Assembly (NCBI GenBank): GCA_964016885.1
Contig: OZ024750.1
Span: 54,374,001-54,438,000, forward strand
DNA length: 64,000 bases
DNA from: Eledone cirrhosa
Lineage: Eukaryota
Direction of reading: 5' to 3'
Shown here: positions 3,001 to 29,100 of the stretch, piece after piece
Numbering within the stretch: the first letter of the stretch is position 1
How the letters are laid out: each line of letters opens with the position of its first letter
Made by a program: the position numbers and the translations under genes
The notes under the pieces: model-generated
The model's database searches: none
The model's input: only the letters and a program-made list of their open reading frames with translations
Told to the model about the DNA's origin: nothing

Positions 3001-6000
3001 CCAATTAACCACCACATCTAGTGGATGTATTGCTATTTGTCTCACATGAACCTGCTTATATTGCAACTAACCTTAACTAGTGGAACTGCTTATTTCCCAA
3101 CTAACCATATCAAGTGGACGTATTGTTATTTGTCTGACATCAACCTACTTATATCCCAACTAACCACCATAGCTAGTGGATGTATTGATATTTGTCTGAG
3201 ATGAACTTGCTTATATCCCAACTAACCATATCTAGTGGATGTATTGCTATTTGTCTGACATGAACCCGCTTATATCCTAACTAACCACCATATCTAGTGG
3301 ATGTATTGTTATTTGTCTGACACGAACATGCATATATCCTAAACAATTTATCTAGTGGAAGTATTGCTATTTGTCTGACATGAACATCGTCATATCCCAA
3401 CTAACCTTATCGAGTGGATGTATTACAATTTGTCTGACATGAACCTCCTTATATCCCAACTAACCACTCTATCTAGTGGATAATTGCTATTTGTTTGACA
3501 TGAACCAGCTTATATCCCAACTAACAGTATCTAGTGGACGTATTGTTATTTGGCTGACATGAACATGCTTATATTCCAACTAACCACCATATCTCGTGGA
3601 TGTACTGCTATTTGTCTGATCTGAACCTGCTTATTTCCCAACTAACCATATCAAGTGGATGTATTGCTATTTGCCTGATATGAGCCTGCTTATATCCTAA
3701 CTAACTACCATATCTAGTGGATGTATTGCTATTTGTCTGACATGAACATGCTTATATTCCAACTAACCACCATATCTAGTGGATGTATTGCTATTTGTCT
3801 GACATGAACGTGCTTATATCCCAATTAACCACCATATCTAGTGGATGTATTAATATTTGTCTGGCATGAACCTGCTTATATCCCAACTAACCATTTCTAG
3901 TGCATGTACTGCTATTTGTCTGATCTGAACCTGAGTATTTCTGAACTAACCATATCAAGTGGATGTATTGCTATTTGCCTGATATGAGCCTGCTTATATC
4001 CTAACTAACTACCATATCTAGTGGATGTATTGCTATTTTCCTGACATGAACATGCTTGTATCCCAACTAACCATATCTAGAGGATGTATTGCTATTTGAC
4101 TGACATGAACCTGCTTATATCCCAATTAACCACCATATCTAGTGGATGTATTAATATTTGTCTGACATGAACCTGCTTACATCCCAACTAACCATATCTA
4201 GTGGATGTATTGCTATTTTTCTGAGATGAACCTGCTTATATCCCAACTAACCACCATATCTATTGGATGTATTAATATTTGTCTGGCATGTACCAACTTA
4301 TATCCCAACTAACGATATCTCGTTGATGTATTGCTATTTGTCTGGCATGAACCTGCTTATATCTCAAGTAACCACCATATCTAGTGAATGTACTACTATT
4401 TGTCTGACATGAACCTGCTTATATACCAACTAACAATATCTAATGGATGTATTGCTATTTGTTTAGCATGAATCTGCTTATATTCCAACTAACCATATCT
4501 AGTGGATGTATTGGTATTTGTCTGACATGAACTTGCTTATATCCCAAGTAACCATATTTTGTGCAAGTAATGCTATTCGTCTGATCTGAACCTGATTATT
4601 TCCCAACTAAACATATCAAGTGGATGTATTGCTATTTGTCTGACATGAACTTGCTTTATATCCCAACTAACCATATCTAGTGGATGTACTGCTATTTGTC
4701 TTGCATGAACCTGCTGATGTCCCCACTAACCATATCTAGAGGATGTATTGCTATTTGTCTGACATGAATCTGCTTATATCTAACTAACCACCATATCTAG
4801 TGGATGTATTGCTATTTGTCTGACATGAACCTGCTTATATCCCAACTAACTTTATCGAGTGGATGTATTACAATTTGTCTGACATGAACCTCCTTATATC
4901 CCAACAAACAATATCTAGTGGATGTATTGCTATTGGTCTGACATGAACCTGCTTATATCCCAACTAACCATCATATCTAGTGGATGTATTGTTATTTGTC
5001 TGACATGAACCTGCTTATATTCTAACTAACCTTATCGAGTGCATGTATTGCTATTTGTTTGACCTGAACCTGCTTATAACCCAACTAACCACCATATCTA
5101 GTGGATGTATTGCTATTTCTCTGACATGAACCTGCTTATATCCCAACTAACCATATCTAGTGGATGTACTACTATTTGTCTGCTATGAACCTGCTTATTT
5201 CCCAACTAACCATATCAAGTGGATGTATTGCTATTTGCCTGATATGACCCTGCTTATATCCCAACTAACTACCATATCTAGTGGATGTATTGCTATTTGT
5301 CTGGCATGTACCAACTTATATCCCAACTAACTATATCTTGTTGATCTATTGCTATTTGTCTGGCATGAACCTGCTTATATCCCAACTAACCATATCTAGT
5401 GGACGTCTTGTTATTTGTCTGACATGAAGTTGCTTATATCCTAACTAACAACCATATCTAATGGATGTATTGCTATTTGTCTGACATGAACCTGCTTATA
5501 TCCCAACTAACCATATCTAGTAGATGTACTGCTATTTGTCTGGCATGAACCTGCTTATATCCCAACTAACCACTCTATCCAGTGGATGTATTTCTATTTG
5601 TCTGACATGAACCTGCTTATATCACAACTAACCACCATATCTAGGGGATGTATTGCTATTTATTTGACATGAATTTGCTTATATCCCAAGTAACCATATT
5701 TAGTGCATGTATTGCTATTTGTCTGACACGAAACTGCTTATATCCCATCTAACCATATCAAGTGGATGTATTACAATTTGTCTGCCATGAACCTGCTTAT
5801 ATCCCAACTAACCTTATCGAGTGGATGTATTACAATTTGTCTGAAATGAACCTCCTTATATCCCAACTAACCATATCTAGTGGATGTACTACTATTTGTC
5901 TGCTATGAACCTGCTTATTTCCCAACTAACCATATCAAGTGGATGTATTGCTATTTGCCTGACATGAACCTGCTTCATATCGCAACTAGCCAACATATCT

Positions 6001-9000
6001 TGTGGATGTATTGCTATTTGTCTGACATGAACTGCTTACATCCCAACTAATAATATCTAGTGGATGTATTATTATGTGTCTGACATGAACCTGCTGATAT
6101 CCCAACTAACCACAATATCTCGTGGATGTATTAATATTTGTCTGGCAAAAACCTGCTTGTATCCCAACTAACCATATCTAGTGGATGTACTTCTATTTGT
6201 CTGCTATGGACCTGCTTATTCCACAACTAACCATATTAATTGGATGTATTGCTATTTGCCTGATATGAGCCTGCTTATATCCCAACTAACTACCATATCT
6301 AGTGGATGTATTGCTATTTGTCTGGATGAACCTGCTTATATCCCAAGTAACCATATCTAGTGGATGTACTACTATTTGTCTGACATGAAGCTGCTCATAT
6401 CCCAACTAACCACCATATCTAGTGCATGTATTGCTATTTGTCTGACATAAACCTGCTTATATCCCAATAAAACCCCATATCTAGTGGATGTATTAATATT
6501 GGTCTGGCAAAAATCTGCTTGTATCCCAACTAACAATATCTAGTGGATGTACTACTATTTGTCTGCTATGAACCTGCTTATTTCCCAACTAACCATATCA
6601 ATTGGATGTATTGCTATTTGCCTGATATGAGCCTGCTTATATCCCAACTAACTACCATATCTAGTGGATGTATTGCTATCTGTCTGGTATGTACCAACTA
6701 ACTATATCTCGTTCATGTATTGCTATTTGTCTGGCATGAACCTGCTTATATCTCAAGTAACCACCATATCTAGTGGATGTATTACTATTTGTCTGACATG
6801 AACCTGCTTATATCCCAACTAACAATATCTAGGGGATGTATTGCTAATTGTCTGACATGAACCTGCTTATATCCCAACTAACCATTATATCTAGTGGATG
6901 TATTGCTATTTATTTGGCATGAATCTGCTTATATCCCAACTAACCATATCTAGTGGATGTATTGCTATTTGTCCGACATGAACCTGCTTATATCCCAACT
7001 AACAAAAATATCTAGTGGATGTATTGTTATTTGTCTGACATGAACCTGCTCATATCCCAACTAACCACCATATCTAGTGGATGTATTGCTATTTGTCTCA
7101 CATGAACCTGCTTATATCCCAACTAACATTATCTAGTGGATGTATTGCTATATGTCTGGCATGAACCTGCTTATATCCCAACTAACCATCATATCCCAGT
7201 GGATGTATTGTTATTTGTCTAACATGAACTTGCTTATATCCCAACTAACTACTGTATGTAGTGGATGTATTGCTATTTGTCTGACATAATCATGCTTATA
7301 TCCCAACTAACCATATCTAGTAGTTGTATTGCTCTTTGTCTGGCATGAACCTGTTTATATTCCAACTAACCACCATATCTAGTGGATGTATTGATATCTG
7401 TCTGACATGAACCTGGTTATATCCCAACTAAACATATCTAGTGGATGTATTGCTATTTGACTGACATGAACCTGCTTATATACCAACTAACCATATCTAG
7501 TGGATGTATTGCTATTTGTCTGTCACGAACCTCCTTATATCCCAACGAACCACCCTATCTAGTGGATGTATTGCTATTTGTCTGACATGAAGATGCTTAG
7601 ATCCCAACTAACCACCATATCTAGAGGATGTATTGCTATTTGACTGACATGAACCTGCTTATATAACAACTAACCATTTCTAGTGGATGTATTGCTATTT
7701 GTCTGTCACGAACCTCCTTATATCCCAAAGAACCACCCTATCTAGTGGATATTTGCTATTTGTCTGACATGAAGATGCTTATATCCCAACTCACCACCAT
7801 ATCTAGTGGATGTATTGCTATTTGCTGACATGAACCTGCTTATATCCCAACCAACCACCATATCTAATGGATGTATTGCTATTTGTCTGACATGAACCTG
7901 CTTATATCCCAAATAATAGAATCTAGTGGATGTATTGCTATTTGCTGACATGAACCTGCTTATATCCCAACCAACCACCATATCTACTGGATGTATTGCT
8001 ATTTGTCTGACATGAACCTGCTTATATCCCAACCAACCACCATATCTAGTGGATATATTGCTATTTATCTGGCATGAACCTGCTTATATCGCAACTAACC
8101 ATATCTAGTCGATGTATTGCTACTTGTCTGGCATGAAGATGCTTATATCCCAACTCACCACCATATCTAGTGGATATATTGCTATTTGTCTGACATGAAC
8201 CTGCTTATATCCCAACTAACCACCATATCTAGTGGATGTATTGCTATTTGTCTGACATAAACCTACTTATATTCCAAATAATAGAATGTAGTGGATGTAT
8301 TGCTATTTGTGTGACATGAACCTGCTTATATCCCAACTAACCATATCTAGTGGATGTATTGTTATTTGTAGGGCATGAACCTGCTTATATCCCAACTAAC
8401 CACCATATCTAGTGGATGTATTGCTATTTGTCTGACATGAACCTGCTTATATCCCAACTAAACATATCTAGTGTATGTATTGTTATTTGTAGGGCATGAA
8501 CCCGCTTATATCCCAACTAACCACCATATCTAGTGGATGTATTGCTATTTGTCTGACATGAACCTGCTTATATCCCAACTAAACATATCTAATGTATGTA
8601 TTGTTATTTGTAGGGCATGAACCTGCTTATATCCCAACTAACCACCATATATAGTGGTTGTATTGCTATTTGTCTGACATGAAACTGCTTATATCCCAAC
8701 TAACCATCATATCTAGTGGATATATTGCTATTTGTCTGACATGAACCTCCTTATATCCCAACTAGCCACTCTATCTAGTGGATGTATTGCTATTTGTCTG
8801 ACATGAACCAGCTTACATCCCAACTAACCATATCTAGTGGATGTATTGAAATTTGTCTGACATCAACCTGCTCATATCCCAACTAACCACCATATCTAGT
8901 GGATGTATCGCTATTTGTCTGACATGAACCTGATTATATCCCAATTAACCACCATATCTAGTGGATGTACTACTATTTGTCTGCCATGAACCTGCTTATA

Positions 9001-10705
9001 TCCCAACTAACAGTATCTAGTGGATGTATTGCCACTTGTCTGGCATGAACCTGCTTACATCCCAATTAACCATCATATCCCAGTGGATGTACTACTATTT
9101 GTCTGCTATAAACCTGCTTATATCCCAACTAACAGTATCTAGTGGATGTATTGCTATTTGTCTGACATGAACCTGGTTATATCCCAACTAACAATCTCTA
9201 GGGGATGTATTGCTATTTGTCTGACATGAACCTGCTTATATCCCAACTAACCATCATATCTAGTGGATGTATTGCTATTTGTTTGGAATGAATCTGCTTA
9301 TATCCCAACTAACCATATCTAGTGGATGTATTGCTATTTGTCTGACATGAACTTGCTCATATCCCAACGAACCATCATATCTAGTGGATGTATTGCTATT
9401 TGTTTGGCATTAATCTGCTTATATCCCAACTAACCATATCTAGTGGACGTATTGTTATTTGTCTGACATGAACCTACTTATATCCCAACTAACTTTGTCG
9501 AGTGGATGTATTACAATTTGTCTGACATGAACCTCCTTATATCCCAACTAACCACTCTATCTCGTGGATGTATTGCTATTTGTCTGACATGAACTTGCTT
9601 ATATCCCAAGTAACCATATTTAGTGTATGTATTGCTATTTGTCTGACACGAACCTGCTTATATCCCAACTAACCATATCTAGTGGATGAATTACAATTTG
9701 TCTGACATGAACCTGCGTATATCCCAACTAACCTTATCGAGTGGATGTATTACAATTTGTCTGAAATGAACCTCCTTATATCCCAACTAACTTTATTGAG
9801 TGGATGTATTACAATTTGTCTGACATGAACCTCCTTATATCCCAACTAACCACTCTATCTAGTGGATGTATTGCTATTTGTCTGACATGAACTTGCTTAT
9901 ATCCCAAGTAACCATATTTAGTGCATGTAATGCTATTCGTTTGACACAAACCTGCTTATATCCCAACTAACCTTATCTAGTGGATGTATTACAATTTATC
10001 TGAAATGAACCTCCTTATATCCCATCTAACAACTCTACCTAGTGGTTGTATTGTATTTGTCTGACATGAACCTGCTTATATCCCAACTAGCCATATCTAG
10101 TGGATATATTGTTATGTGTCTGATATGAACCTGCTTATATCCCAACTAACCATATCTACTGGATGTACTTCTATTTGTCTGCTATGAACCTGCTTATTTC
10201 CCAACTAACCATATCAAGTGGATGTATTGCTATTTGCCTGATATGAGCCTGCTTATATCCCAACTAACTACCATATCTAGTGGATATATTGCTATTTGTC
10301 TGACAGGTACTAACTTATATCCCAACTAACTATTTTTCGTTGACGTATTGCTATTTGTCTGGCATGAACCTGCTTATATCTCAAGTAACCACCATATCTA
10401 ATGGATGTATTACTATTTGTCTGACATGAACCTGCTTGTATCCCAAGTAACCATATCTAGTGGATGTATTGCTATTTGTATGACATGAACCTACTTATAT
10501 CCCAACTAACCATATCTAGTGGATGTATTGCTATTTGTATGACATGAACCTACTTATATCCCAACTAACCATATCTAGTGGATGTATTGCTATTTGTATG
10601 ACATGAACCTGCTAAGATCCCAACTAACCACCATATCTAGTCGATGTATTGCTATTTGTCTGACATGAAACTGCTTATATCCCAACTAACCACCATATCT
10701 AGTGG

Positions 10706-10772
<67 letters not shown>

Positions 10773-13110
10773 AGTAAAATAACGGAGTAAAGAACTCAGG
10801 TATACAGGATTATACGCGAGTCCTTTAATTCTATCCCAACTGACCATATCTAGTGGATGTATTGCTATTTGACTGACATGAACCTGCTTATATCCCAACT
10901 AACCATATGTAGCGGATGTATTGCTATTTGTCTGACATGAACCTGCTTATATTCCAACTAACCATATCTAGTGGATGTATTGCTATTTGACTGACATGAA
11001 CCTGTTTATATCCCAACTAACCATATGTAGCGGATGTATTGCTATTTGTCTGACATGAACCTGCTTATATCGCAACTAACCACAATATCTAGTGGATGTA
11101 TCGCTATTTGTCTGACATGATCCTGCTTATATCCAAACTAACCACCATATATAGTGGATGTATTGCTATTTATCTGACATGAACCTGCTTTTATTCCAAC
11201 TAACCATATCTAGTGGATGTATTGCTATTTGTCTGACATGAACCTGCTTTTATCGCAACTAACCACCATATCTATTTGATGTATTGCTATTTGTCTGAGA
11301 TGAACCTGCTTATGTCCCAACTAACCACCATATCTTGTGGATGTACTGCTATTTGTCTGACATGATCCTGCTTATATCCCAACTAACCACCATATCTAGT
11401 GGATGTAATGCTATTTGTCTCCCATGAACCTGCGTATATCCCAACTAACCATATCTAGTGAATGTATTAATATTTGTCTGGCATGAACCTGCTTATATTC
11501 CAACTAACCATATCTAGTCGATGTATTGCTATTTGTTTGACATAAACCTACTTACATTCCAAATAAGCACCATATCTAGTTGACGTATTGCTATTTGTCT
11601 GACATGAACTTGCTTATATCCCAAGTAACCAAATTTAGTGTATGTATTGCTATTTGTCTGACACGAACCTGCTTATATCCCAACTAACCATATCTAGTGG
11701 ATGTATTACAATTTGTCTGACATGAACCTGCGTATATCCCAACTAACCTTATCGAGTGGATATATTACAATTTGTCTGAAATGAACCTCCTTATATCCCA
11801 ATTAACCACTCTATCTAGCGGATGTATTGCTATTTGTCTGACATGAACTTGCTTATATCCCAAGTAACCATATTTAGTGCATGTAATGCTATTCGTTTGA
11901 CACAAACCTGCTTATATCCCAACTAACCATATCTAGTGGATGTATTACAATTTATCTGAAATGAACCTCCTTATATCCCATCTAACAACTCTATCTAGTG
12001 GTTGTATTGTATTTGTCTGACATGAACCTGCTTATATCCCAACTAGCCATATCTAGTGGATATATTGTTATGTGTCTGATATGAACCTGCTTATATCCCA
12101 ACTAACCACCATATCTAGTGGATGTATTAATATTTGTCTGGCATGAACCTGCTTATATCCCAACTAACCATATCTACTGGATGTACTTCTATTTGTCTGC
12201 TGTGAACCTGCTTATTTCCCAACTAACCATATCAAGTGGATGTATTGCTATTTGCCTGATATGAGCCTGCTTATATCCCAACTAACTACCATATCTAGTG
12301 GATATATTGCTATTTGTCTTGCAGGTACCAACTTATATCCCAACTAACTATATCTCGTTGATGTATTGCTATTTGTCTGGCATGAACCTGCTTATATCTC
12401 AAGTAACCATATCTAGTGGATGTATTGCTATGTGTATGACATGAACCTGCTTGTATCCCAAGTAACCATATCTAGTGGATGTATTGCTATTTGTATGACA
12501 TGAACCTACTTATATCCCAACTAACCATATCTAGTGGATGTATTGCTATTTGTATGACATGAACCTGCTTATATCCCAACTAGCCATATCTAGTGGATAT
12601 ATTGTTATGTGTCTGACATGAACCTGTTTATATCCCAATTAACCACCATATCTAGTGGATGTATTACTATTTGTCTGGCATGAACCTGCTTATATCCCAA
12701 ATAACCATATCTAGTGGATTTATTAATAATTGTCTGGCATGAACCTCCTTATATCCCAACTAACCATATCTAGTGGATGTATTGCTATTTGTCTGACATG
12801 AACCTGCTTATATCCCAAGTAAGCACAATATCTAGTGGATGTATTGCTATATTTCTGGCATGAAGCTGCTTATATCCCAAGAACCATATCTAGTGGATTT
12901 ATTGTTATTTGTCTGACATGAACATGCTTATATCCCAACTACCCACCATATCTAGTCAATGTATTGCTATTTGTCTGACATGAACCTGCTTATATCCTAA
13001 CTAACCACCATATCTAGTGGATGTATTGCTATTTGTCTTTCATGAATCTGCTTATATCGCAACTAACCATAACTAGTTGATGTATTGCTATTTGTCTGAC
13101 ATGAACCTGA
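1..13110. repeat. Satellite array, 59-bp unit with a 62-bp (+CCA) variant, roughly 215 copies, running off the window start
   Basis: Consensus CCATATCTAGTGGATGTATTGCTATTTGTCTGACATGAACCTGCTTATATCCCAACTAA(CCA). Consecutive units start at 10451, 10510 and 10569 (59-bp period). Confidence 0.97.
10707..10832 (-). mobile_element. (TA)n plus a ~60-bp non-satellite fragment inserted in the satellite; probable Penelope-like terminus
   Basis: (TA)n followed by CAAGTAAAATAACGGAGT..., which resembles the reverse complement of the sequence abutting (TA)n at 16942-16980. The Penelope assignment is inference. Confidence 0.5.
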
Positions 13111-13344
13111 CAAATTTTTCCCAGTGAAAATCATTTTAATTAGGAATAAGTATAAATTAGTAATATGTTAGTATTCAGTTTTAGTTTTAAGTTTTTACCA
13201 GTTGCACTTTTCTAATGCTTTTCTAAAATAATTTTCGAGATAGAGTGCTCGTGATGTTTGCTCTAATCTGATCAGTTTTGGGAATTCTTCCTGTTTTATG
13301 TGAAAAAAGTGGCTCCAGAGATATTAAGATTTGGTTGAACAAGT

Positions 13345-15115
13345 ACTATAAAACATACTACGAAAAGGCTGAACACTACAATCAACAGAAATTATGAGAA
13401 GTCTAAAAACTGTGATCAATCAATACAAAGAAGGACTCACTAACAAGGAATTCAGCTTCATCACAGACTTCACAAGTAAATCCAGCCTTTTCTACGGTAT
13501 CCCTAAAGTACATAAAAGCGAATTAATAAGTAAGGCATGCAAGGAAGCCACAGATAGTCATCAATGTCCCCTCACCCAATGATCTCAAATTAAGACCTAT
13601 AATAGCAGGCCCCGCTTGCGAAACCCACCGCCTTATCAACTTCATTGATACCCTTCTCAAGCCTTTTCTCAAACACATCAAAAGCTATATAAGGGACGAC
13701 CTAGATATGCTCAATCACCTCCCTAATATGCCGCTTACTGAACAAACCCTACTAGTGACGTTCGATCTAGTCAACCTATACTCCAACATCCCCCACAACC
13801 TAGGAATAGAAGCTATCCAATTCTGGCTGGATAATTACCACAATGAACTCCCACAACGCATCAAAAAAGAACTCGTGATAGAAGGACTCAAATTTATCTT
13901 GGAGAACAATTACTTCGTTTTCAATAACAAATCCTACAGGCAGAAATCTGAGACCGTTATGGGAACGAAAACGGCCCCACTTAAGGCAACCTAGTCATGG
14001 GATACCTGGAAATTACCCTCTACACTAAAGTACTAAACAAATTTGGAAACACTCTCCACTTACACATAGAAAAGAACTGGAAGCGATATCTAGATGACTG
14101 CTTCATCCTTTGGCACGAAAACATCGAGAAACTTAAAGAATTTCACACCCTTATAAATGGGCTCAACACGAATATTAACTTTACGATGGAATACAGCCAT
14201 CAACAACTCCCCTTCCTCGACATCCTCATTAAGATTCATAACAAAAAAATAGAAACAGACATATACTACAAACCCACAGACTCCAAGCAATATCTTCCTT
14301 TCAATTCTTGCCACCCTAGACACGTTAAAATTAATATTCCCTATAACTTAGGCAAGAGAATCTGTACTATAGTCTCCAATAAAAACACCTGTTACTTACG
14401 GCTACAAGAACTAAAGGACACACTCATAAGCAGGGACTACCCTGCATCACTAATTGACAATGGAATCCAACGAGCCCTAAAACTCAGTACCCAGGACCTT
14501 AGACACCCTAAAGTATATCAACCGAAACTAAAAGCTCTTCCATACATCTCCACACACAACCCCTCAACAATGAGGCCTTTGACACCATCCTCCAGAATAT
14601 CCGTGTGTTAAAAAAGGACCATAGAATGAACCAAATCCTTCGAACACACGATATCATAAAGAGCAAAAGACAATCTAAGTCAATGAAAAACATCCTAACA
14701 CATGCCAAAGTACTGCCAACCACAACAACCAAACCCACAGTAAAAAAAATACGATAGACCCAAATGTGGCATATGCATCAACCTAATAGAGGGCTCGGAA
14801 TTCTATTTCAAAGAAGGACAACGTTTTATAGTAAAACACAATTTCACATGCGCATCAGAAAATCTAATATATGTATTAACTTGCTCAGGTTGTCGAGAAC
14901 AATACATAGGCCAGACTAAAACTGCCTCCGCCAACGCATGACTGTCCATAGATCCCAAATTAAAATACGGGATTACAGAAAAATACCACTGAGTGAACAC
15001 ATTGATACCTGTGCCGCCCCAAATCATCCCAACTTTAGAATCTTTCCCCTCTACAAATTTAAAGATAATGCCACCCACACCCAGCAAGGGATCTCACTTT
15101 ATTAACAAATACGGA
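13345..15115 (+). mobile_element. Penelope-like retroelement, 5'-truncated and frameshifted (RT + GIY-YIG endonuclease)
   Basis: Penelope-type RT motifs FYGIPKVHK, LRPII, FDLVNLYSNIP, RYLDDCF, LPFLD and YYKPTD in ORFs 13394-14611. GIY-YIG-type segment NLIYVLTCSGCREQYIGQT at about 14860-14918, preceded by CxxC. Confidence 0.93.
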
Positions 15116-15492
15116 CCCCGTCTAAACACTTCTCCCTAAGACGAACCCACAACATACACACGTCAACATACATACCTACATCAGCATACATCCTACATAC
15201 ATGTCTATCCACATATAAACACAATGACATACGTAAACACACATGTCCTATTGTGCAACACAAATTTACATACCTTTTGATGTTTATAGATATAAACATG
15301 CCGACACACACACATACACATACGCACACATGTATTGCACATTGATGGGCACATACATATTTGTACACAAGTATCCCATACGGCATCACTGATTTTTCGT
15401 TTTATATTATATCACACTCTGCTCTGTAAGAACAGAGTTCTCAACTGGCATACCGCCTATGGAATACCATAGCTACCATTAAACACACACAC

Positions 15493-15524
<32 letters not shown>

Positions 15525-16351
15525 ATATATAATTTCGAGCTTAATGAGTTCATGTCATTTGAAATAGAAACAGAAAGTCATTAATATAATGGTACATCTT
15601 TTTCTTTTTTCCTAGGGCTGCTGAATCTAGAGCAATGTGGTAATCATATATAGTGATATCCAGAATTTGATAATATTTTGTTATCCTCTCTATTTTTTTC
15701 TCTTTTCCCTAAATTAGACATAACAGAGACATTACCATATATACTCAAATATAAACTGATCTAAATATAATCTAAATTCCTATTTTATGCCTGAGAAATG
15801 GGCAAAAATCGAAAACCCGTTTATAAGCTGAGGTAGCTAATCACCACATTATGTTTAGATTGTGTGGTTTTGAAATACTCATGAGTATTAAATATATTTA
15901 TGAAGTTTTAATATTTTGATGTTTAAAATGTTTTAAGTGTCGTTTAAAATATAGTTTTTGTTTCACAACTCCATTATGTAATGCATTTTTACCATTTCAT
16001 TCGTTTTATAGTTTCAACAAGTTTCTCAAACTTTTATTTACTTCTGGCCACTCACATACTGGGAGTAGTTGAAAGTAAACAATCGAATAAGAGAACTTTG
16101 TATAGGAATTCATTGAGTAGAATGAGTAGAAGTGGGAGAGAGAGGAGAGATAGAGCAAGAAAAAGAGAGGGAGAGAGAGCAATAAAATAAAATCAGATTT
16201 CTATCTTACGTTTTTAAGCATTATAGGGGTGCAGATGAAAACATGTTCATTTTAGTAGACTTGCTATCAAAGAAAATTATTTTTTCGTAACAAAGCAATT
16301 TATTTGTCTCTATTTTCCTCTAATAATATAAAACAGAGTTGCCAGTCCACT

Positions 16352-16420
16352 CAAGGATGCCAGACAGTGTTGTTTCAAGATTTGTTGATCTTTCATCAGT
16401 GACACACATTCAATCCATAA
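16352..16420 (-). ncRNA. Type I hammerhead ribozyme, core intact
   Basis: Minus strand reads GGA-UUGAAUGU-GUGUCA CUGAUGA AAGAU-CAACAA-AUCUU GAA ACA-ACAC-UGU C UGGCAU CC. It has CUGAUGA, GAAA, a GUC triplet and stems I, II and III all paired. Confidence 0.8.
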
Positions 16421-17039
16421 TAGCATGGAAATAGACTAAAGTCTATATAAAATTTTGCAGGTTGTTGTTTTAAATGTCCACTTTCTCTGCTAGCAAGAGT
16501 TGGACGTATATATATATATGGGCTGCCCTTTCTAGCAGCTCGTCCATCAGAGGCACTGGTTCACTGCCCTTAAACTCGCTGAGACTTCTCTCTTCCACGT
16601 GTAGCTGGACAGTCACTTTTAAAATTCTCTTAGTGTTGTCTGAAATGTATAGCCATTTCTGTCAACAAATTACTGGTGAAACATCTCTTTGGATTTGTAC
16701 ATGTGTTATATAGTTATAGAGGTATTTATTTATACTTTAATTTATATTTTTAATTATCGTGTCTATAGTCTGCCTTTCATAGGTTATAGATTCCATACAC
16801 TGGTGGTTTTTTCCCTGTTTTATCGATAGCGCACTGTATATCTCTCTCTGGTGTGTTACCTTTTCAACATATTGTATTTTAAAGAGCTCAGGATTTCTTC
16901 TCCTTGAGCACATTATTTACAGGGAATGGCGAGGGCCTATGACTCCGTTAATTTATCGTGATATATATATATATATATATCTGTTAGCCTCTTCCTCACC
17001 CTTCACTCACTCACTCTCTGTTACTACCTCTCCTCCTCC

Positions 17040-17310
17040 TCCTTCTTCCCGTTTGACCTGTGCGTAATTCTTTTCTTTCGCACGCTTGGCCAGGCCGGTT
17101 CGCCTTTTTTCTCTCTCTCGTCTACGATTTCACAGAACTTATGTTCACCGAATTCACGGACTAGACCCCTTCTTCCTCCCGTTAGACCTGTGCGGAATTC
17201 CTTCCTTGCTCACATTTCAACCAGGTTTGATGGTCTTTATTCTCTCTCGTTCACGATTTCACCGAACTTATATTCATGGAAATTTGGGACTTGACTCGTT
17301 CTTCCTTATT
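17040..17310. repeat. Degenerate 130-bp tandem duplication within a (TA)n-flanked segment
   Basis: GACCTGTGCG at 17055 and 17185; the TTTCAC..AACTTAT.TTCA segment also repeats. Confidence 0.7.
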
Positions 17311-17477
17311 TTTCATTGCTTCACCATCTTTGTTTGTTTACACTCTCGCTGTTCCCTTTAATTACGTGTCCCAACGACTTTCTTTAGCCGTTGCTCGCAC
17401 CAACCGGAGGTATATGGTCTTTAAAGCGAAGAAATACCGATGATGGTTGGAAGATCACTGATGAAGGACCACTTTAT

Positions 17478-18637
17478 TCATATATATATATATATATATA
17501 TAACAGAGGATGTCTGTCTGTCTGTGTAAATCCCTAAAACTCGAGAAGTACCCGACCGACTTTTTTCAAACTTTACATACGTTACTGATATTTCTTGAAG
17601 TGAAATGGGCTAAAAAAATGTTAACTTTTTTTCGCATTAGGCGAAAAACCGTTAACATTTTTTTTCTTGGCCTATGACTCTTTTTTGGGGCGTTACTTAA
17701 AGATAATCCAACCGATTTCCTCGAAATTTGCAGCACACATTAGTTAGTCCCCTCATATTGCTGTGGACAAAAGATTTCCGATTCCATTAATGGTTTCTAG
17801 GAAATTTACGAATTAGCATTGGGTATTACATGCCTTTTTCATTTTCAATATAAACGCTACTTAAACATCGTAAGCAGCGTATAATATTTCGTTAAAAAAT
17901 TTGGTTTATTTAACCGAGGACACAACACTTACTTTTAAGCATGACCATTTTCGGGCGATTGAGGAAATGAGGAGGACCTTAAAATATTTGTCGACACCTT
18001 GTTGAAGCTTTGTACTTTCATCACGCACAAATCCGGGCCCTGTGTACGTTGCCGTGTTATTGACACCGTAAAACTCACGTCTGTGCTACTTCTACTAAGA
18101 CCCCTTTTGTTGCACATACACTGCAGTATGAACGTCCTGTGCAAGTACGCTGAACAGCGGTTGTGCTAATTCCGCAGTGACCTCTTTTGTCGCACCTTTG
18201 TTGCTGTGTAAATGCAGTGCAACCCAGTCCAGTGTTTGTGCTAATTGCACTATGACCCCCTTCTGCTGCAGCTGCGTTGCCACGCTGATTTCGTCATCTC
18301 AATATCCCTACTTAAACGTTCATCCCTACTTGGTTTTCACACAATTGACTACATCGCTCCGTCAGACTGGCGTGTGTTCCCCATCTGTGACGTAACTCGT
18401 GAACAGACTTACTACATACTTACTTACTCCTTTCGCATACAGCATTTGCGCAATCAGCCCACTCACACTGCTACTACTGGATTCTGCCTGCTGGTGTTCT
18501 ACGGTTCCAGTAGATGAACAATCATTCCCTGAGAATAAGGGAATTCAAAAAGTACACAGCTACATTCCTCAATCTTTGCATATGCGTGTTGCTATTTCAT
18601 GTTTCCTACCCCGTGAAACGCCGGGTCCTGCAGCTAG
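17478..18637 (+). mobile_element. Non-autonomous Helitron
   Basis: 3' hairpin CCCG-TGAAACGC-CGGG (18610-18625) followed by CTAG|T at 18634-18638. The 5' end is TC(ATAT)n...(GTCT)n; its exact boundary is blurred by (TA)n. Confidence 0.75.
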
Positions 18638-18794: not shown

Positions 18795-19967
18795 TCTATA
18801 CATATATATATAAAACTGTAGTTGTCTGTGTGTGTATCATCATTTTTGCAAAGTCTATACAAATCCACATTTCTACTCCGATTGACTTCAAACTTGCATT
18901 TATATATTCCTTGCAGTCTAAAGATATTAACTGCAGCTTTTATTTTTCAATTTTCTGTTGTTAAAGGGGTGTTAGACACCGATTATCCATCTCCGTCGCG
19001 CCCTTATAATATCTGTCTGTATGCCTGGCTGTCTGCATTACGACATTCTGACAAATATTGATGACGTATTATGTTCGCTATTTTCCGTTCATTGCCAGGG
19101 AACGTCTTCACGAACCAAAGTATCGTCTTCCTGTTTTCTTTCGGTTGCAACGTTTTTCGAAATATTTACTTCTGCGTTCACAGATTGATTTTTTTAGTTT
19201 CAGAAGATCCCGTTAAGGGTGAAAGCAGCGATTCTTTGCTTAAACTTTAAACTGTTCTTTTAATATATAATATAAGCGAAGCAAGCCAGCCCAGTTGCAC
19301 TTCTTGCCAATAAACATTAATCATTTGTGCGCCATTCAGCTAACTGTAGACCAACAAATACCAACTAAATGGAGCATTGACAAGAATGATGGCAAATGAA
19401 TCTTCGAGGTAAGCAGTTTCCTCCCGAACTGTTAGTTCACGTGGGATTCTCTGCTACACCTTTTCGTAATAATACCGAAGAACGTACTGCTGGTCACTCC
19501 TTCCTCAAAAGCTGTACAAAGAGGACATGTGCATCGGGCAGATGGATTCGGGTGCAAATCTACACCAGGCATACGCGAGAAAATGGCAAGGGACTGCACC
19601 GACAGGGATAGAGAGAAAGAGTAACTTAGTGGAAAGAGTGCGAATGAACTTTTGAGGTAAGTAGCCTACGCCTTACTGCTATGACACTGGAACCTTCTGC
19701 CAACTTAACCTGTGGCGTTATCTTTCACATTTAGTCCAAAAGGCCAAAACAGAGGAGTATGAAAAGAAGGGGCTCAACAATATTTCTATGAACAATGCAT
19801 GTAGACATCTAAACTGTACTTTCAACTTCTTAATTTTCTCCAAATAAAACAAGTTTCCTTTCGGTATATTTTTGTGAGTTTTTAACAGGTACTCACAAAT
19901 AAATGTTTCTCATTGGAGGTGCTATTACCAATATTCTTACCTGTGCAACGCCGGGATACACTGCTAG
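18795..19967 (+). mobile_element. Non-autonomous Helitron with both ends
   Basis: A|TCTATACATATATATATAAAA at 18795, 3' hairpin CCTG-TGCAACGC-CGGG and CTAG|T at 19964-19968. Insertion between A and T with no TSD is the canonical Helitron signature. Confidence 0.82.
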
Positions 19968-20163
19968 TATATATATATATATATACACATATATATCATG
20001 ACAATGATATATATATTTGTGTGTATATACATATATCATCATCACCTCCGTCTTACGTCCATTTTCCACGCTAACATGGGTTAGACGGGTTGTCCTGTTG
20101 TGGGCAATGCTAGGTCAGCAAGACCATGTCTTGCTCATACAGGATTGGTTTTGGCTTGGCTTC

Positions 20164-23100
20164 TACAGTGTGGGCTGAGTGCTTTTTGTTGTGACACCTA
20201 CATGACAACTTTAGTGTGGACTGGGTGCTTTTTGTTGGGACACCTACATGACCACTTTACAGTGTGGACTGGGTGCTTTTTGTTGTGACACCTACATGAC
20301 CACTTTACAGTGTGGGCTGGGTGCTTTTTGTTGGGACACCTACATGACCACTTTAGAGTGTGGACTGGGTGCTTTTTGTTGGGACACCTACATGACCACT
20401 TTAGAGTGTGGACTGGGTGCTTTTTGTTGTGACACCTACATGACAACTTTAGAGTGTGGGCTGGGTGCTTTTTGTTGTGACACCTACATGACCACTTTAG
20501 AGTGTGGACTGGGTGCTTTTTGTTGTGACACCTACATGACAACTTTAGAGTGTGGACTGGGTGCTTTTTGTTGTGACACCTACATGACCACTTTAGAGTG
20601 TGGACTGGGTGCTTTTTGTTGTGACACCTACATGACAACTTTAGAGTGTGGGCTGGGTGCTTTTTGTTGTGACACCTACATGACCACTTTAGAGTGTGGG
20701 CTGAGTGCTTTTTGTTGTGACACCTACATGACGACTTTAGAGTGTGGACTGGGTGCTTTTTGTCGTGACACCTACATGACCACTTTAGAGTGTGGACTGG
20801 GTGCTTTTTGTCGTGACACCTACATGACCACTTTACAGTGTGGGCTGGGTGCTTTTTGTTGTGACACCTACATGACCACTTTACAGTGTGGGCTGGGTGC
20901 TTTTTGTTGTGACACCTACATGACCACTTTACAGTGTGGGCTGGGTGCTTTTTGTTGGGACACCTACATGACCACTTTAGAGTGTGGACTGGGTGCTTTT
21001 TGTTGTGAGACCTACATGACCACTTTACAGTGTGGACTGGGTGCTTTTTGTCGTGACACCTACATGACCACTTTACAGTGTGGGCTGGGTGCTTTTTGTC
21101 GTGACACCTACATGACCACTTTACAGTGTGGGCTGGGTGCTTTTTGTTGTGACACCTACATGACCACTTTACAGTGTGGGCTGGGTGCTTTTTGTTGGGA
21201 CACCTACATGACCACTTTAGAGTGTGGACTGGGTGCTTTTTGTTGTGAGACCTACATGACCACTTTACAGTGTGGACTGGGTGCTTTTTGTCGTGACACC
21301 TACATGACCACTTTACAGTGTGGGCTGGGTGCTTTTTGTCGTGACACCTACATGACCACTTTACAGTGTGGACTGGGTGCTTTTTGTTGTGAGACCTACA
21401 TGACCACTTTACAGTGTGGACTGGGTCCTTTTTTATACAGAAACCTACATGACCACTTTACAGTGTGGAGTGCGTGCTTTTTGTTGTGACACCTACATGA
21501 CAACTTTAGTATGGACTGGGTGCTTTTTGTTGTGACACCTACATGACAACTTTAGTGTGGACTGAGTGCTTTTTGTTGTGACACCTACATGACCACTTTA
21601 CAGTGTGGGCTGGGTGCTTTTTGTTGTGATACCTACATGACTACTTTACAGTGTGGACTGGGTGCTTTTTGTCGCGACACCTACATGACCACTTTACAGT
21701 GTGGACTGGGTGCTTTTTTATCGTGACACCTACATGACCACTTTACAGTGTGGACTGGGTGCTTTTTGTCATGACACCTACATGCCCACTTTACAGTGTA
21801 GATTGGGTGCTTTTTGTTGTGACACCTACATGACCATTTTACAGAGTGGACTGGGTACTTTTTGTCGTGACACACTACATGACCACTTTACAGAGTGGAC
21901 TGGGTACTTTTTGTCGTGAAACACTACATGACCACTTTACAGTGTGGACTGGGTGATTTTTGTTGTGACACCTACATAATCACTTCACAGTGTGGACTGG
22001 GTGCTTTTTGTCGTGACACCTACATGACCACTTTACAGTGTGGACTGGGTGCTTTTTGTCGTGACACCTACATGACCACTTTACAGTATGGACTGGGTGC
22101 TATTTGTCGTGACACCTACATGACTACTTTACAGTATGGACTGGGTGCTTTTTGTTGTGGCACCTACATGACCACTTTACAGTGTGGACTGGGTGCTATT
22201 TGTCGTGACACCTACATGACCACTTTATAGTGTGGACTGGGTGCTTTTTGTTGTGACACCTACATGACCATTTTACAGTGTGGACTGGGTGCTTTTTGTC
22301 GTGACACCTACATGACCACTTTACAGTGTGGGCTGGGTGCTTTTTGTCGTGGCACCTACATGACAACTTTAGTATGGAGTGGGTGCTTTTTGTTGTGACA
22401 CCTACATGACTACTTTACAGTGTGGACTGGGTGCATTTTGTCGTGACACCTACATGACCACTTTACAGTGTGGGCTGGGTGCTGCTACTTGTCGTGACAC
22501 CTACATGACTACTTTACAGTATGGACTGGGTGCTTTTTGTTGTGGCACTTACATGACCACTTTACAGTGTGGACTGGGTGCTATTTGTCGTGACACCTAC
22601 ATGACCACTTTACAGTGTGGGCTGGGTGCTGCTACTTGTCGTGACACCTACATGACTACTTTACAGTATGGACTGGGTGCTTTTTGTTGTGGCACCTACA
22701 TGACCACTTTACAGTGTGGACTGGGTGCTATTTGTCGTGACACCTACATGACCACTTTATAGTGTGGACTGGGTGCTTTTTGTTGTGACACCTACATGAC
22801 CATTTTACAGTGTGGACTGGGTGCTTTTTGTCGTGACACCTACATGATCACTTTACAGTGTGGACTGGTTGCTTTTTGTTGTGACACCTACATGACAACT
22901 ATAGTATGGACTGGGTGCTTTTTGTTGTGACACCTACATGACAACTTTAGTGTGGACTGGGTGCTTTTTGTTGTGACACCTACATGACCACTTTACAGTG
23001 TGGGCTGGGTGCTTTTTGTCGTGACACCTACATGACTACTTTACAGTGTGGACTGGGTGCTTTTTTACACTGAGACCTACATGACCACTTTACAGTGTGG

Positions 23101-26100
23101 ACTGGGTGCTTTTTGTTGTGACACCTACATGACAACTTTAGTATGGACTGGGTGCTTTTTGTTGTGACACCTACATGACAACTTTAGTGTGGACTGAGTG
23201 CTTTTTGTTGTGACACCTACATGACCACTTTACAGTGTGGGCTGGGTGCTTTTTGTTGTGATACCTACATGACTACTTTACAGTGTGGACTGGGTGCTTT
23301 TTGTCGCGACACCTACATGACCACTTTACAGTGTGGACTGGGTGCTTTTTTATCGTGACACCTACATGACCACTTTACAGTGTGGACTGGGTGCTTTTTG
23401 TCATGACACCTACATGCCCACTTTACAGTGTAGATTGGGTGCTTTTTGTTGTGACACCTACATGACCATTTTACAGAGTGGACTGGGTACTTTTTGTCGT
23501 GACACACTACATGACCACTTTACAGAGTGGACTGGGTACTTTTTGTCGTGAAACACTACATGACCACTTTACAGTGTGGACTGGGTGATTTTTGTTGTGA
23601 CACCTACATAATCACTTCACAGTGTGGACTGGGTGCTTTTTGTCGTGACACCTACATGACCACTTTACAGTGTGGACTGGGTGCTTTTTGTCGTGACACC
23701 TACATGACCACTTTACAGTATGGACTGGGTGCTATTTGTCGTGACACCTACATGACTACTTTACAGTATGGACTGGGTGCTTTTTGTTGTGGCACCTACA
23801 TGACCACTTTACAGTGTGGACTGGGTGCTATTTGTCGTGACACCTACATGACCACTTTATAGTGTGGACTGGGTGCTTTTTGTTGTGACACCTACATGAC
23901 CATTTTACAGTGTGGACTGGGTGCTTTTTGTCGTGACACCTACATGACCACTTTACAGTGTGGGCTGGGTGCTTTTTGTCGTGGCACCTACATGACAACT
24001 TTAGTATGGAGTGGGTGCTTTTTGTTGTGACACCTACATGACTACTTTACAGTGTGGACTGGGTGCATTTTGTCGTGACACCTACATGACCACTTTACAG
24101 TGTGGGCTGGGTGCTGCTACTTGTCGTGACACCTACATGACTACTTTACAGTATGGACTGGGTGCTTTTTGTTGTGGCACTTACATGACCACTTTACAGT
24201 GTGGACTGGGTGCTATTTGTCGTGACACCTACATGACCACTTTACAGTGTGGGCTGGGTGCTGCTACTTGTCGTGACACCTACATGACTACTTTACAGTA
24301 TGGACTGGGTGCTTTTTGTTGTGGCACCTACATGACCACTTTACAGTGTGGACTGGGTGCTATTTGTCGTGACACCTACATGACCACTTTATAGTGTGGA
24401 CTGGGTGCTTTTTGTTGTGACACCTACATGACCATTTTACAGTGTGGACTGGGTGCTTTTTGTCGTGACACCTACATGATCACTTTACAGTGTGGACTGG
24501 TTGCTTTTTGTTGTGACACCTACATGACAACTATAGTATGGACTGGGTGCTTTTTGTTGTGACACCTACATGACAACTTTAGTGTGGACTGGGTGCTTTT
24601 TGTTGTGACACCTACATGACCACTTTACAGTGTGGGCTGGGTGCTTTTTGTCGTGACACCTACATGACTACTTTACAGTGTGGACTGGGTGCTTTTTTAC
24701 ACTGAGACCTACATGACCACTTTACAGTGTGGACTGGGTGCTTTTTGTTGTGACACCTACATGACAACTTTAGTATGGACTGGGTGCTTTTTGTTGTGAA
24801 ACCTACATGACAACTTTAGTGTGGACTGGGTGCTTTTTGTTGTGACACCTACATGACCACTTTACAGTGTGGGCTGGGTGCTTTTTGTCGCGACACCTAC
24901 ATGACCACTTTACAGTGTGGACTGGGTGCTTTTTTATCGTGACACCTACTTGACCACTTTACAGTGTCGACTGGGTGCTTTTTGTTGTGACACCTACATG
25001 ACAACTTTTGTATGGACTGGGTGCTTTTTCTTGTGACACCTACATGACAACTTTACAGTGTGGACTGGGTGCTTTTTGTCATGACACCTACATGCCCACT
25101 TTACAGTGTAGATTGGGTGCTTTTTGTTGTGACACCTACATGACCACTTTACAGTGTGGACTGGGTGCTTTTTGTTGTGACACCTACATGACCACTTTAC
25201 AGAGTGGACTGGGTACTTTTTGTCGTCACACACTACATGACCACTTTACAGTGTGGACTGGGTGATTTTTGTTGTGGCACCTACATGACCACTTAACAGT
25301 GTGGACTGGGTGCTTTTTGTCGTGACACCTACATGACCACTTTAGTGTGGACTGGGTGCTTTTTGTCATGACACCTACATGACCACTTTACAGTGTGGAC
25401 TGGGTGCTTTTTGTCGTGACACCTACATGACCACTTTACGGTATGGACTGGGTGCTATTTGTCGTGACACCTACATTACCACTTTACAGTATAGACTGGG
25501 TGCTTTTTGTTGTGGCACCTACATGACCACTTTACAGTATGGACTGGGTGCTATTTGTCATGACACCTACATGACCACTTTATAGTGTGGACTGGGTGCT
25601 TTTGTTGTGACACCTACATGACCACTTTACAGTGTGGAGTGGGTGCTTTTTGTCGTGACACCTAGGTGACCACTTTACAGTGTGGGCTGGGTGCTTTTTG
25701 TCGTGGCACCTACATGACAACTTTAGTATGGACTGGGTGCTTTTTGTTGTGAGACCTACATGACAACTTTAGTGTGGACTGGGTGCTTTTTGTTGTGACA
25801 CCTACATGACCACTTTACAGTGTGGGCTGGGTGCTTTTTGTCGTGACACCTACATGACTACTTTACAGTGTGGACTGGGTGCTTTTTGTCGCGACACCTA
25901 CATGACCACTTTACAGTGTGGACTGGGTGCTTTTTGTCGTGACACCTACATGACCACTTTACGGTATGGACTGGGTGCTATTTGTCGTGACACCTACATT
26001 ACCACTTTACAGTATAGACTGGGTGCTTTTTGTTGTGGCACCTACATGACCACTTTACAGTATGGACTGGGTGCTATTTGTCATGACACCTACATGACCA

Positions 26101-29100
26101 CTTTATAGTGTGGACTGGGTGCTTTTGTTGTGACACCTACATGACCACTTTACAGTGTGGAGTGGGTGCTTTTTGTCGTGACACCTAGGTGACCACTTTA
26201 CAGTGTGGGCTGGGTGCTTTTTGTCGTGGCACCTACATGACAACTTTAGTATGGACTGGGTGCTTTTTGTTGTGAGACCTACATGACAACTTTAGTGTGG
26301 ACTGGGTGCTTTTTGTTGTGACACCTACATGACCACTTTACAGTATGGGCAGGGTGCTTTTTGTCGTGACACCTACATGACTACTTTACAGTGTGGACTG
26401 GGTACTTTTTGTCGCGACACCTACATGACCATTTTACAGTGTGGACTGGGTGATTTTTGTTGTGACACCTACATGACAACTTTAGTATGGACTGGGTGCT
26501 TTTTGTTGTGGCACCTACATGATCACTTTAAAGTGTGGACTGGGTGCTTTTTGTCGTGACACCTACATGCCCACTTTACAGTGTAGATTGGGTGCTTTTT
26601 GTTGTGACACCTACATGACTACTTTACAGTGTGGACTGGGTGCTTTTTGTGCGACACCTACATGACTACTTTACAGTATGGACTGGGTGCTTTTTTATCG
26701 TGACACCTACATGACCACTTTACAGTGTGGACTGGGTGCTTTTAGTTGTGAACCTACATGCCCACTTTACAGTGTAGATTGGGTGCTTTTTGTTGTGACA
26801 CCTAAATGACCATTTTACAGAGTGGACTGGGTACTTTTTGTCGTGACACACTACATGACCACTTTACAGAGTGGACTGGGTACTTTTTGTTGTGACACAC
26901 TACATGACCACTTTACAGTGTGGACTGGGTGATTTTTGTTGTGACACCTACATGCCCACTTTACAGTGTAGATTGGGTGCTTTTTGTCGTGATACCTACA
27001 TGACAACTTTAGTGTGGACTGAGTGCTTTTTGTTGTGACACCTACATGATCACTTTACAGTGTGAACTGGGTGCTTTTTGTCGTGACACCTACATGACTA
27101 CTTTACAGTGTGGACTGGGTGCTTTTTGACACGACACCTACATGACCACTTTACAGTGTGGACTGGGTGCTTTTAGTTGTGACACCTACATGACCACTTT
27201 ACAGTGTAGATTGGGTGCTTTTTGTTGTGACACCTACATGACCATTTTACAGAGTGGACTGGGTACTTTTTGTCGTGACACACTACATGACCACTTTACA
27301 GAGTGGACTGGGTACTTTTTGTCGTCACACACTACATGACCACATTACAGTGTGGACTGGGTGCTTTTTGTCGTGACACCTACATGACTACTTTACAGTG
27401 TGGACTGGGTGCTTTTTTATACTGAGACCTACATGACCACTTTATAGTGTGGACTGGGTGCTTTTTGTTGTGACACCTACATGACAACTTTAGTATGGAC
27501 TGGGTGCTTTTTGTTGTGACACCTACATGACCACTTTACAGTGTGGACTGGGTGCTTTTTGTCGTGACACCTAGATGCCCACTTTACAGTGTAGATTGGT
27601 TGCTTTTTTTTGTGATACCTACATGACAACTTTAGTGTGGACTGAGTGCTTTTTATTATGACACCTACATGACCACTTTACAGTGTGGGCTGGGTGCTTT
27701 TTGTCGTGACACCTACATGACTACTTTACAGTGTGGACTGGGTGCATTTTGTCGCGACACCTACATGACCACTTTACAGTGTCGACTGGGTGCTTTTTGT
27801 TGTGACACCTACATGACAACTTTAGTATGGACTGGGTGCTTTTTGTTGTGACACCTACATGACCACTTTACAATGTGGACTGGGTGCTTTTTGTCATGAC
27901 ACCTACATGCCCACTTTACAGTGTAGATTGGGTGCTTTTTGTTGTGACACCTACATGACCACTTCACGGTGTGAACTGGGTGCTTTTTGTCATGACACCT
28001 ACATGACCACTTTACAGTGTGGACTGGGTGCTTTTTGTCGTGACACCTACATGACCACTTTACGGTATGGACTGGGTGCTATTTGTCGTGACACCTACAT
28101 GACCACTTTACAGTATAGACTGGGTGCTTTTTGTTGTGGCACCTACATGACCACTTTACAGTATGGACTGGGTGGTATTTGTCGTGACACCTACATGACC
28201 ACTTTATAGTGTGGACTGGGTGCTTTTTGTTGTGACACCTACATGACCACTTTACAGTGTGGAGTGGGTGGTTTTTGTCGTGACACCTAGATGACCACTT
28301 TACAGTGTGGGCTGGGTGCTTTTTGTCGTGACACCTACATGACCACTTTACAGTGTGGACTGGGTGCTTTTTGTTGTGAGACCTACATGACCACTTTACA
28401 GTGTGGACTGGGTCCTTTTTTATACAGAAACCTACATGACCACTTTACAGTGTGGAGTGCGTGCTTTTTGTTGTGACACCTACATGACAACTTTAGTATG
28501 GACTGGGTGCTTTTTGTTGTGACACCTACATGACAACTTTAGTGTGGACTGAGTGCTTTTTGTTGTGACACCTACATGACCACATTACAGTGTGGGCTGG
28601 GTGCTTTTTGTTGTGATACCTACATGACTACTTTACAGTGTGGACTGGGTGCTTTTTGTCGCGACACCTACATGACCACTTTACAGTGTGGACTGGGTGC
28701 TTTTTTATCGTGACACCTACATGACCACTTTACAGTGTGGACTGGGTGCTTTTTGTCATGACACCTACATGCCCACTTTACAGTGTAGATTGGGTGCTTT
28801 TTGTTGTGACACCTACATGACCATTTTACAGAGTGGACTGGGTACTTTTTGTCGTGACACACTACATGACCACTTTACAGAGTGGACTGGGTACTTTTTG
28901 TCGTGAAACACTACATGACCACTTTACAGTGTGGACTGGGTGATTTTTGTTGTGACACCTACATAATCACTTCACAGTGTGGACTGGGTGCTTTTTGTCG
29001 TGACACCTACATGACCACTTTACAGTGTGGAGTGGGTGCTTTTTGTCGTGACACCTACATGACCACTTTACAGTATGGACTGGGTGCTATTTGTCGTGAC

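Follow-up and report, generated by a model that had tools for sequence, protein, structure and literature searches.

Hammerhead ribozymes of animal genomes have been described in the monomers of non-LTR retrozymes and in the pseudo-LTRs of Penelope-like elements. Solo monomers are presented as a recognised state of retrozyme families (10.64898/2026.07.22.740005), and palindromic helices III are reported to allow tandem hammerheads to cut as dimers (PMC4209133; PMC7229834). Penelope-like elements are described as inserting at (TA)n targets, with 5′ truncation, partial tandem arrangement and an inverted copy at the 5′ end (PMC8557442). A promoter of the snRNA type is attributed to newt satellite II (cited in PMC2220036). 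In the Schistosoma structure U1.7 makes a Hoogsteen contact with loop 2, and one study found U1.7 to be dispensable in trans (PMC11875169 for both).

HH9 and HH10 are solitary hammerheads in amniote introns. Mammalian hammerhead motifs are described as isolated (PMC7229834). A different class of mobile DNA, the non-autonomous Helitrons, is characterised by a 5′ TC, a 3′ hairpin followed by CTAG, and uptake of host DNA (PMC4344730).

The hammerhead motif in the window

The window, a 64-kb stretch of contig C10, consists of satellite and microsatellite DNA and the debris of retroelements. Scanned on both strands with a descriptor, it contains one hammerhead, at 16357..16405 on the minus strand, with 6, 5 and 3 pairs in stems I, II and III; helix I is open, and the three helices have type I topology. 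Stem I pairs 16405-16400 with 16362-16357 (6 pairs, two of them G-U) and leads into the core CUGAUGA (16399-16393). Stem II pairs 16392-16388 with 16381-16377 (5 pairs), the core GAAA occupies 16376-16373, and stem III pairs 16373-16371 with 16366-16364 (3 pairs). With U16.1 at 16364 and C17 at 16363, the predicted cut falls between 16363 and 16362. The conserved core and the NUH site are present, and 12 of 12 core positions tested are intact. Across 300 first-order shuffles of the 33.5 kb of non-satellite window sequence, hits averaged 0.02 (loose) and 0 (strict) per shuffle. A family model, R1, whose alignment includes the window copy, matched 16334-16435 with 82.3 bits.

The minus-strand letters are those quoted in the preliminary description, whose quotation ends at 16351, one base beyond its start coordinate. 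Its complete core, 5-bp stem II and 3-bp stem III agree with the 6/5/3 result of the scan, its count of one copy in the window was returned by both the scan and model R1, and its reading of the motif as a canonically sized type I hammerhead whose stem I bears a UG bulge is supported. The Rfam comparison proposed there as a check matched no hammerhead family, at the gathering score or at E ≤ 10, in the window or in 15800-17000; six better-kept old-copy loci gave no match to the Rfam hammerhead models either. The minimum-energy structure of the isolated 86-mer is not a hammerhead, and this fragment folds no better than its shuffles (z = +0.83). The motif is genuine, though what it belongs to is a decaying, truncated member of an old repeat family of 394 nt.

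This copy is a 5′-truncated, retrozyme-like monomer remnant of 246 bp (16213..16458, minus strand), corresponding to monomer positions 299-502 at 83% identity plus a 32-nt piece and lacking both octamer motifs of the full monomer. Stem I of the family is a long helix of 24 pairs with a UG bulge. In the window copy this helix is damaged (16340..16425, minus strand): 11 of 17 distal pairs form, compared with a median of 13.5 in old copies. Both 1.7 and 2.7 are changed, the former to C (16356) and the latter to U, and U1.7, through which fast natural ribozymes make their tertiary contact with loop 2, is absent. The sixth pair of stem II, which old copies form with a U, is broken, leaving the 'CAA..A' loop. 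This loop had been read as a feature of fast ribozymes; its C at 16387 occurs in 1 of 68 old copies and is a minority letter in sequencing reads, and the loop is a private mutation produced by decay. Another product of decay is the GGA/UCC extension of stem I previously pointed out, which uses the C at 1.7 where 67 of 68 old copies keep U; the family's own extension is a different and much longer helix. Self-duplex formation by helix III is predicted at −2.2 kcal/mol for the window copy versus −16.9 kcal/mol for the palindrome, and predicted pairing probabilities in the window copy are 0.0 for stem I, 0.51 for stem II and 0.01 for stem III. If transcribed, the window copy is predicted to cleave slowly at best, or not at all.

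Elsewhere in the window, a 59-62 bp satellite covers 1-13109 and continues for ~10 kb upstream (~23 kb in all), and a 48-bp satellite occupies 17 kb (20164-37416). An endonuclease/RT frame of LINE type, 781 codons long, and additional RT fragments lie within 42521-44866 (+) and 49173-51259 (+).

An old family of 394-nt monomers

In the 3.0-Gb assembly, a 121-base query around the motif gave 528 candidates (best 40 scored), an exact 35-letter core pattern occurred at 28 places, and an exact core-plus-stem-II pattern at 125 (control pattern, 0), so that the motif is not solitary as had been proposed. The matches split into two age classes, young and old. Longer queries gave 869 and 1886 candidates, and the best 40 of each included relatives 74-84% identical; the divergent matches of the old class have only a few hundred bases around the ribozyme in common. 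The majority sequence of 46 old copies is a circularly permuted monomer with a period of 394, one hammerhead and 34% GC, and the copies are 74-87% identical to each other or to this sequence. A monomer of an undescribed retrozyme family, the alternative offered in the preliminary description, agrees with this period, with the covariation in stem I and with the insertion marks described below.

Mapped onto a tripled monomer, 52 of 73 old loci have 3′ ends within two short AT-rich windows that make up 47 of the 394 positions. These 3′ ends often run into (AT)n, and the 5′ starts are scattered, with variable 5′ truncation. More than one monomer is present in 33 of 73 loci, with a maximum of 594 nt, i.e. 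up to 1.5 monomers, the lengths being inflated because about a third of the copies were picked with a 481-bp query. An inverted 5′ piece abuts the copy in 15 of 73 loci. Ends, truncations, inversions and lengths, as read from the sequences, are insertion marks of the Penelope type. For the 5′ starts, so as not to favour copies with the ribozyme, we used a set of 30 loci picked by sequence downstream of the cut site, 28 after the query and a duplicate were dropped: 19 start upstream of the cut site, 9 downstream and none at 1.1. Copies that start on both sides of the cut site and never at 1.1 argue against linear monomers released by cleavage as the main template; a multimer left uncut would suit, as would a circle closed by ligation.

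Among the 100 core-plus-stem-II matches listed (of 125), the closest pair lies 1118 bp apart and there is no tandem array. Partial tandems occur in the 33 loci with more than one monomer, one of which (L123) has two motifs, and the top-scored matches listed include no full-unit array. Eighteen dispersed palindrome-bearing matches, 2 of them already in the alignment described below, are all single, with no array. DNA reads contain the family in organisms A and B and next to nothing of it in organism C, and the assembled read pieces shown (runs X1, X4, X5, X6 and X7) include no high-depth monomer contig. The family is apparently extinct. An AT-rich hairpin of the monomer also occurs in a more abundant repeat with different flanks (L113, 1908-1963), perhaps a sister family.

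Alignment A1 comprises 69 rows, the window copy and 68 of 74 old motifs; the other six (those of L080, L119, L134, L136 and L194, plus the duplicate in L185) were truncated, misaligned or duplicated and were not included. Conservation of the core in A1 is not evidence, because 29 rows were chosen by core patterns. In stem I, 14 of the 24 pairs around the UG bulge show changes on both sides between subfamilies. Cells with such changes number 130 versus 76 ± 8 in shuffles (0/500), a control that ignores relatedness, and 83.5% of stem I cells are paired versus 31-41% when the strands are slid. The number of stem I pairs with both-sided change is not above that in shuffles (16 vs 15.5; 238/500), and unconstrained RNAalifold returned no structure for the 69 rows. 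Stem II of the family is 6 pairs long, and the sequences of helix III are variants of two palindromes, ACAGCGCUGU and ACAGCUGU; the palindrome is perfect in 9 of 69 rows, and the others are mostly off by CpG-type changes. Folded as a circle, the majority monomer has a predicted energy of −113.8 kcal/mol versus −66.8 ± 4.6 kcal/mol for 60 shuffles (z = −10.3). The octamer ATGCAAAT occurs in it twice, 171 and 130 nt ahead of the cut site. An octamer forms part of the snRNA-type promoter of newt satellite II.

Within 26 old copies, 25 of 307 core positions are changed (8.1%) versus 788 of 5337 in the rest of the monomer (14.8%; p = 0.0008), and the core is intact in 8 copies versus 3.8 expected. 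Lower divergence of the core fits constraint on active master lineages followed by decay; the test also leaves selection on some old copies compatible with it.

Segment A, probable cargo between Helitron-type ends

The young class shares more than the ribozyme. The motif lies within segment A (15533..16506, plus strand), the cargo of a non-autonomous Helitron-like composite present in ~38 copies at 90-100% identity, which holds the monomer remnant and pieces of other repeats. All 29 other loci found with the 121-base query share segment A or part of it at 90-95%, and a query from another part of A gave 38 near-full places at 90-100%, followed by partial matches only. Shared flanks mark several young copies, on C18 and three small contigs, as duplicates. 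In most young copies segment A is followed by (TA)n and then by segment B; the (TA)n tract that joins the two (16507..16520 in the window) is often interrupted by later insertions in other copies too, and two later inserts stand between A and B in the window copy. Segment B (17490..18637, plus strand), a non-autonomous Helitron-type module forming the 3′ end of the composite, starts with TATATAA, contains (GTCT)n and a G+C-rich hairpin, and ends in CTAG (18634-18637) followed by T. A module further left of segment A starts like segment B. Seventeen young 10-kb loci, mostly with different flanks, include 11 with the 5′ end, 14 with the 3′ end and 10 with both. The 5′ end has TC after A, several loci reading A-TCTATATA, and the flanks, read by eye, lie in (TA)n. 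For the window copy, the 5′ half of the composite was not found within 50 kb upstream. The motif, previously said to lie in no recognisable element, is part of a 1-kb segment that has ~38 copies and is flanked by ends of the Helitron type.

RepHel loci are plentiful (3704 candidates, best 150 scored) and have similar hairpin-CTAGT 3′ ends, and none of 15 RepHel loci carries the ends of the composite as its own, so that no autonomous partner was found among them. Near-identical RepHel loci (L219-L228, L264 and L265, on C27, C20, C19 and C16) are clustered at a spacing of ~100-200 kb and likely represent large segmental repeats. A second Helitron-type element with similar ends directly follows segment B in the window (~18810-19970, +). 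The contigs to which segment A collapses in run X1 have a depth of ~340; in organism B a single contig of depth 18 represents the left part of the segment, differing at 21 of 211 bases. This contrast in depth would be expected of single-copy DNA amplified in one lineage. Segment A also includes a piece of a very high-copy repeat (15760-16020) that reaches a depth of 62,000 in X1 and is also found in organism B.

One of the later inserts, between (TA)n tracts at 16520-16960, has an 86% match beside L209. The other, at 16981..17486 (plus strand), is a truncated repeat of ~636-bp period and not part of the ribozyme. Copies of this repeat (3340 candidates, best 40 scored; L211, L205 and L200 among them) are young, 97-99% identical and circularly permuted, and occur as partial and full tandems and as 5′-truncated copies ending in (TA)n, some with inverted pieces. 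CUGAUGA is present and no complete hammerhead was seen; 5 of 7 units checked have no GAAA partner within 120 nt, and one unit has it at +110. The repeat is possibly a recently active non-autonomous derivative of Penelope.

A decayed Penelope-like element (13200..15140, plus strand) with an RT YLDD motif and a GIY-YIG-like motif stands where the 5′ half of the composite would be. It is not shared by other composite copies and is not homologous to the monomer. Its family is large and young (10724 candidates, the best 150 scoring 92-100%), and some copies have open frames of 700-784 codons. As a parent of the monomer it was rejected: 0 of 29 other copies of its family resemble the monomer. Across 198 loci, three Penelope peptides of the window matched 4 other places, namely the Helitron-free monomer loci L049 and L170 and one young-composite place fetched twice. 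The piece in L170 is a later insertion, because it is 92-96% identical and lies beside a 77% monomer. With this one Penelope family as probe, no RT/GIY-YIG ORF joined to the monomer and no pseudo-LTR homology was found, and upstream of long monomer copies there is further monomer sequence rather than coding sequence.

Selection on the ribozyme was assessed in 26 of 30 copies that were picked by another part of segment A and span the motif, a set that includes segmental duplicates. Changes number 4 of 311 in the core, 15 of 728 in the stems and 422 of 21724 in the flanks; compared with the flanks, p = 0.53 for the core and p = 0.91 for core plus stems in this low-power test. The core is intact in 22 of 26 copies because the copies are young. 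By these counts the ribozyme in the Helitron cargo shows no sign of selection and appears to mutate at the rate of its flanks. Re-copying of the window copy, ~38 times, was likely the work of a rolling-circle DNA transposon that carried it as a passive load. The earlier suggestion of domestication is unlikely: segment A has ~38 genomic copies, with no excess conservation of the ribozyme among them.

Origin of the motif and comparison with known systems

A non-LTR retrozyme family, with later and neutral capture of one remnant by a Helitron, probably explains the motif. RNA of the 394-nt family likely cut itself at the hammerhead and was likely copied back by enzymes of Penelope-like retrotransposons. 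Multimeric transcripts, perhaps made from an internal snRNA-type promoter marked by the two octamers, would have been cut to monomers, probably aided by pairing of two palindromic helices III, and then circularised. Priming at AT-rich sites by a Penelope-type RT/endonuclease would have been followed by copying across the junction in the ribozyme, and such read-through could have produced the observed 5′-truncated, sometimes inverted insertions of up to 1.5 monomers. One such remnant lies in a segment that has been multiplied with a Helitron-type 5′ end on one side and a hairpin-CTAG 3′ end on the other, the ribozyme being on the opposite strand. We hold it doubtful, if conceivable, that the locus records a longer path: reverse transcription by Penelope enzymes that went round a ribozyme-made RNA circle more than once, from a retrozyme with its own octamer promoter of the snRNA type, and the fossil then turned into a Helitron cassette able to cut minus-strand transcripts, half-way to a domesticated solitary ribozyme.

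Several marks of the family are shared with an unlikely alternative in which the 394-nt unit was the pseudo-LTR of an extinct autonomous Penelope-like element, whose RNA the hammerhead processed and whose copies were 5′-truncated. The same insertion marks would result, a palindromic helix III is given as typical of Penelope hammerheads (PMC4209133), and Xenopus retrozymes are reported to be homologous to pseudo-LTRs (10.64898/2026.07.22.740005); however, more monomer rather than coding sequence lies upstream of long copies, the Penelope peptides of the window recur at just 4 other places among 198 loci, and the family hammerhead has canonical long stems I and II. That the match to the descriptor arose by chance has next to no probability: the failure of Rfam models and the poor folding z-score would agree with it, but 300 shuffles gave 0 strict hits, and the family has a covarying long stem I together with a palindromic helix III.

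It is very improbable that the window copy is a domesticated ribozyme at work on a minus-strand host transcript, within an intron or UTR. The 12 of 12 intact core positions, and old copies that preserve the core better than the remaining monomer, speak for this reading, yet there are ~38 near-identical copies, 22 of 26 of which are likewise core-intact owing to youth, and the window copy carries additional damage in stems I and II, with predicted pairing probabilities of 0.0/0.51/0.01 for stems I/II/III. Its surroundings are satellites and retroelement debris, and the 8 ORFs scanned encode retroelement domains or nothing. Even less credible is a composite that spreads by means of its ribozyme, as an RNA-based element of a new type. 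That the ribozyme is retained in 26 of the 30 copies selected through a different part of segment A would be in line with it; the ends are those described for a rolling-circle DNA element (PMC4344730), which largely refutes it, and the ribozyme is internal, antisense and mutated at the flank rate, with copy ends that do not lie at the cut site.

The probable capture of a retrozyme remnant by a Helitron removes a tempting candidate for a domesticated ribozyme, and illustrates how a solitary intact hammerhead can arise without function when an old remnant is recently re-amplified by a DNA transposon. The insertion anatomy of the family offers direct sequence support for Penelope enzymes moving animal retrozymes from circular or uncut multimeric RNA; two earlier papers argue for such mobilisation from co-occurrence and pseudo-LTR homology. 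Since the Rfam models miss the whole 394-nt family, model-based counts of ribozymes in such genomes would be too low.

We set the family, known here from its DNA, beside published retrozyme families by features, and on most testable ones it would qualify as a metazoan non-LTR retrozyme. Its 394 nt, 34% GC and single type I hammerhead lie within the range used for retrozymes (150-450 bp, GC below 50%, one type I hammerhead), and the same genome contains Penelope-like elements and Penelope-type insertion marks. The nearest in size are the 350-390 bp repeats described from Mytilus galloprovincialis, and these repeats and axolotl Rtz_331/353 likewise have one type I hammerhead per monomer of <450 bp (PMC7229834). 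Low GC, the lack of a long ORF in the sequences seen, a circle predicted to be self-paired, a palindromic helix III suited to dimeric cleavage and Penelope elements in the genome are all traits reported for metazoan non-LTR retrozymes. Unlike the retrozymes of those accounts, the 394-nt family yielded no tandem arrays in the matches examined and has partial tandems of up to 1.5 units, and its copies are all old. Its octamer motifs recall the snRNA-type promoter ascribed to newt satellite II (PMC2220036).

Hammerheads described from Penelope pseudo-LTRs (PMC4209133, PMC8557442) share with the family 5′ truncation, an inverted 5′ piece, AT-rich or (TA)n 3′ junctions and a palindromic helix III. 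The family differs from these, as published, in having no attached RT/GIY-YIG ORF and in having long stems I and II in place of a minimal motif, and it has no homology to the one Penelope family tested. With the Schistosoma Sm-alpha hammerhead and newt satellite 2 the family shares type I topology, bulging of stem I and a U at position 1.7. It differs in that this U can pair with A2.7 and in that stem II comprises 6 pairs, is A+U-rich and begins with A-U; in the window copy position 1.7 is C. Like HH9 and HH10, the window motif is a single type I motif at its locus; unlike them it is multi-copy, lies in mobile DNA, shows no sign of purifying selection and has no Rfam match.

The composite resembles the Hel-2 type of non-autonomous Helitrons in its 5′ end near TC, (GTCT)n tract, 3′ hairpin, CTAG before T and internal captured sequence, as described (PMC4344730), and differs in that its cargo includes a ribozyme-bearing retroelement remnant. 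The open-access literature consulted contained no description of Helitron capture of a ribozyme or of the 394-nt family. We read the locus as the relic of a retrozyme family that is apparently extinct, multiplied anew in the cargo of a Helitron: a known kind of element on an unusual ride.
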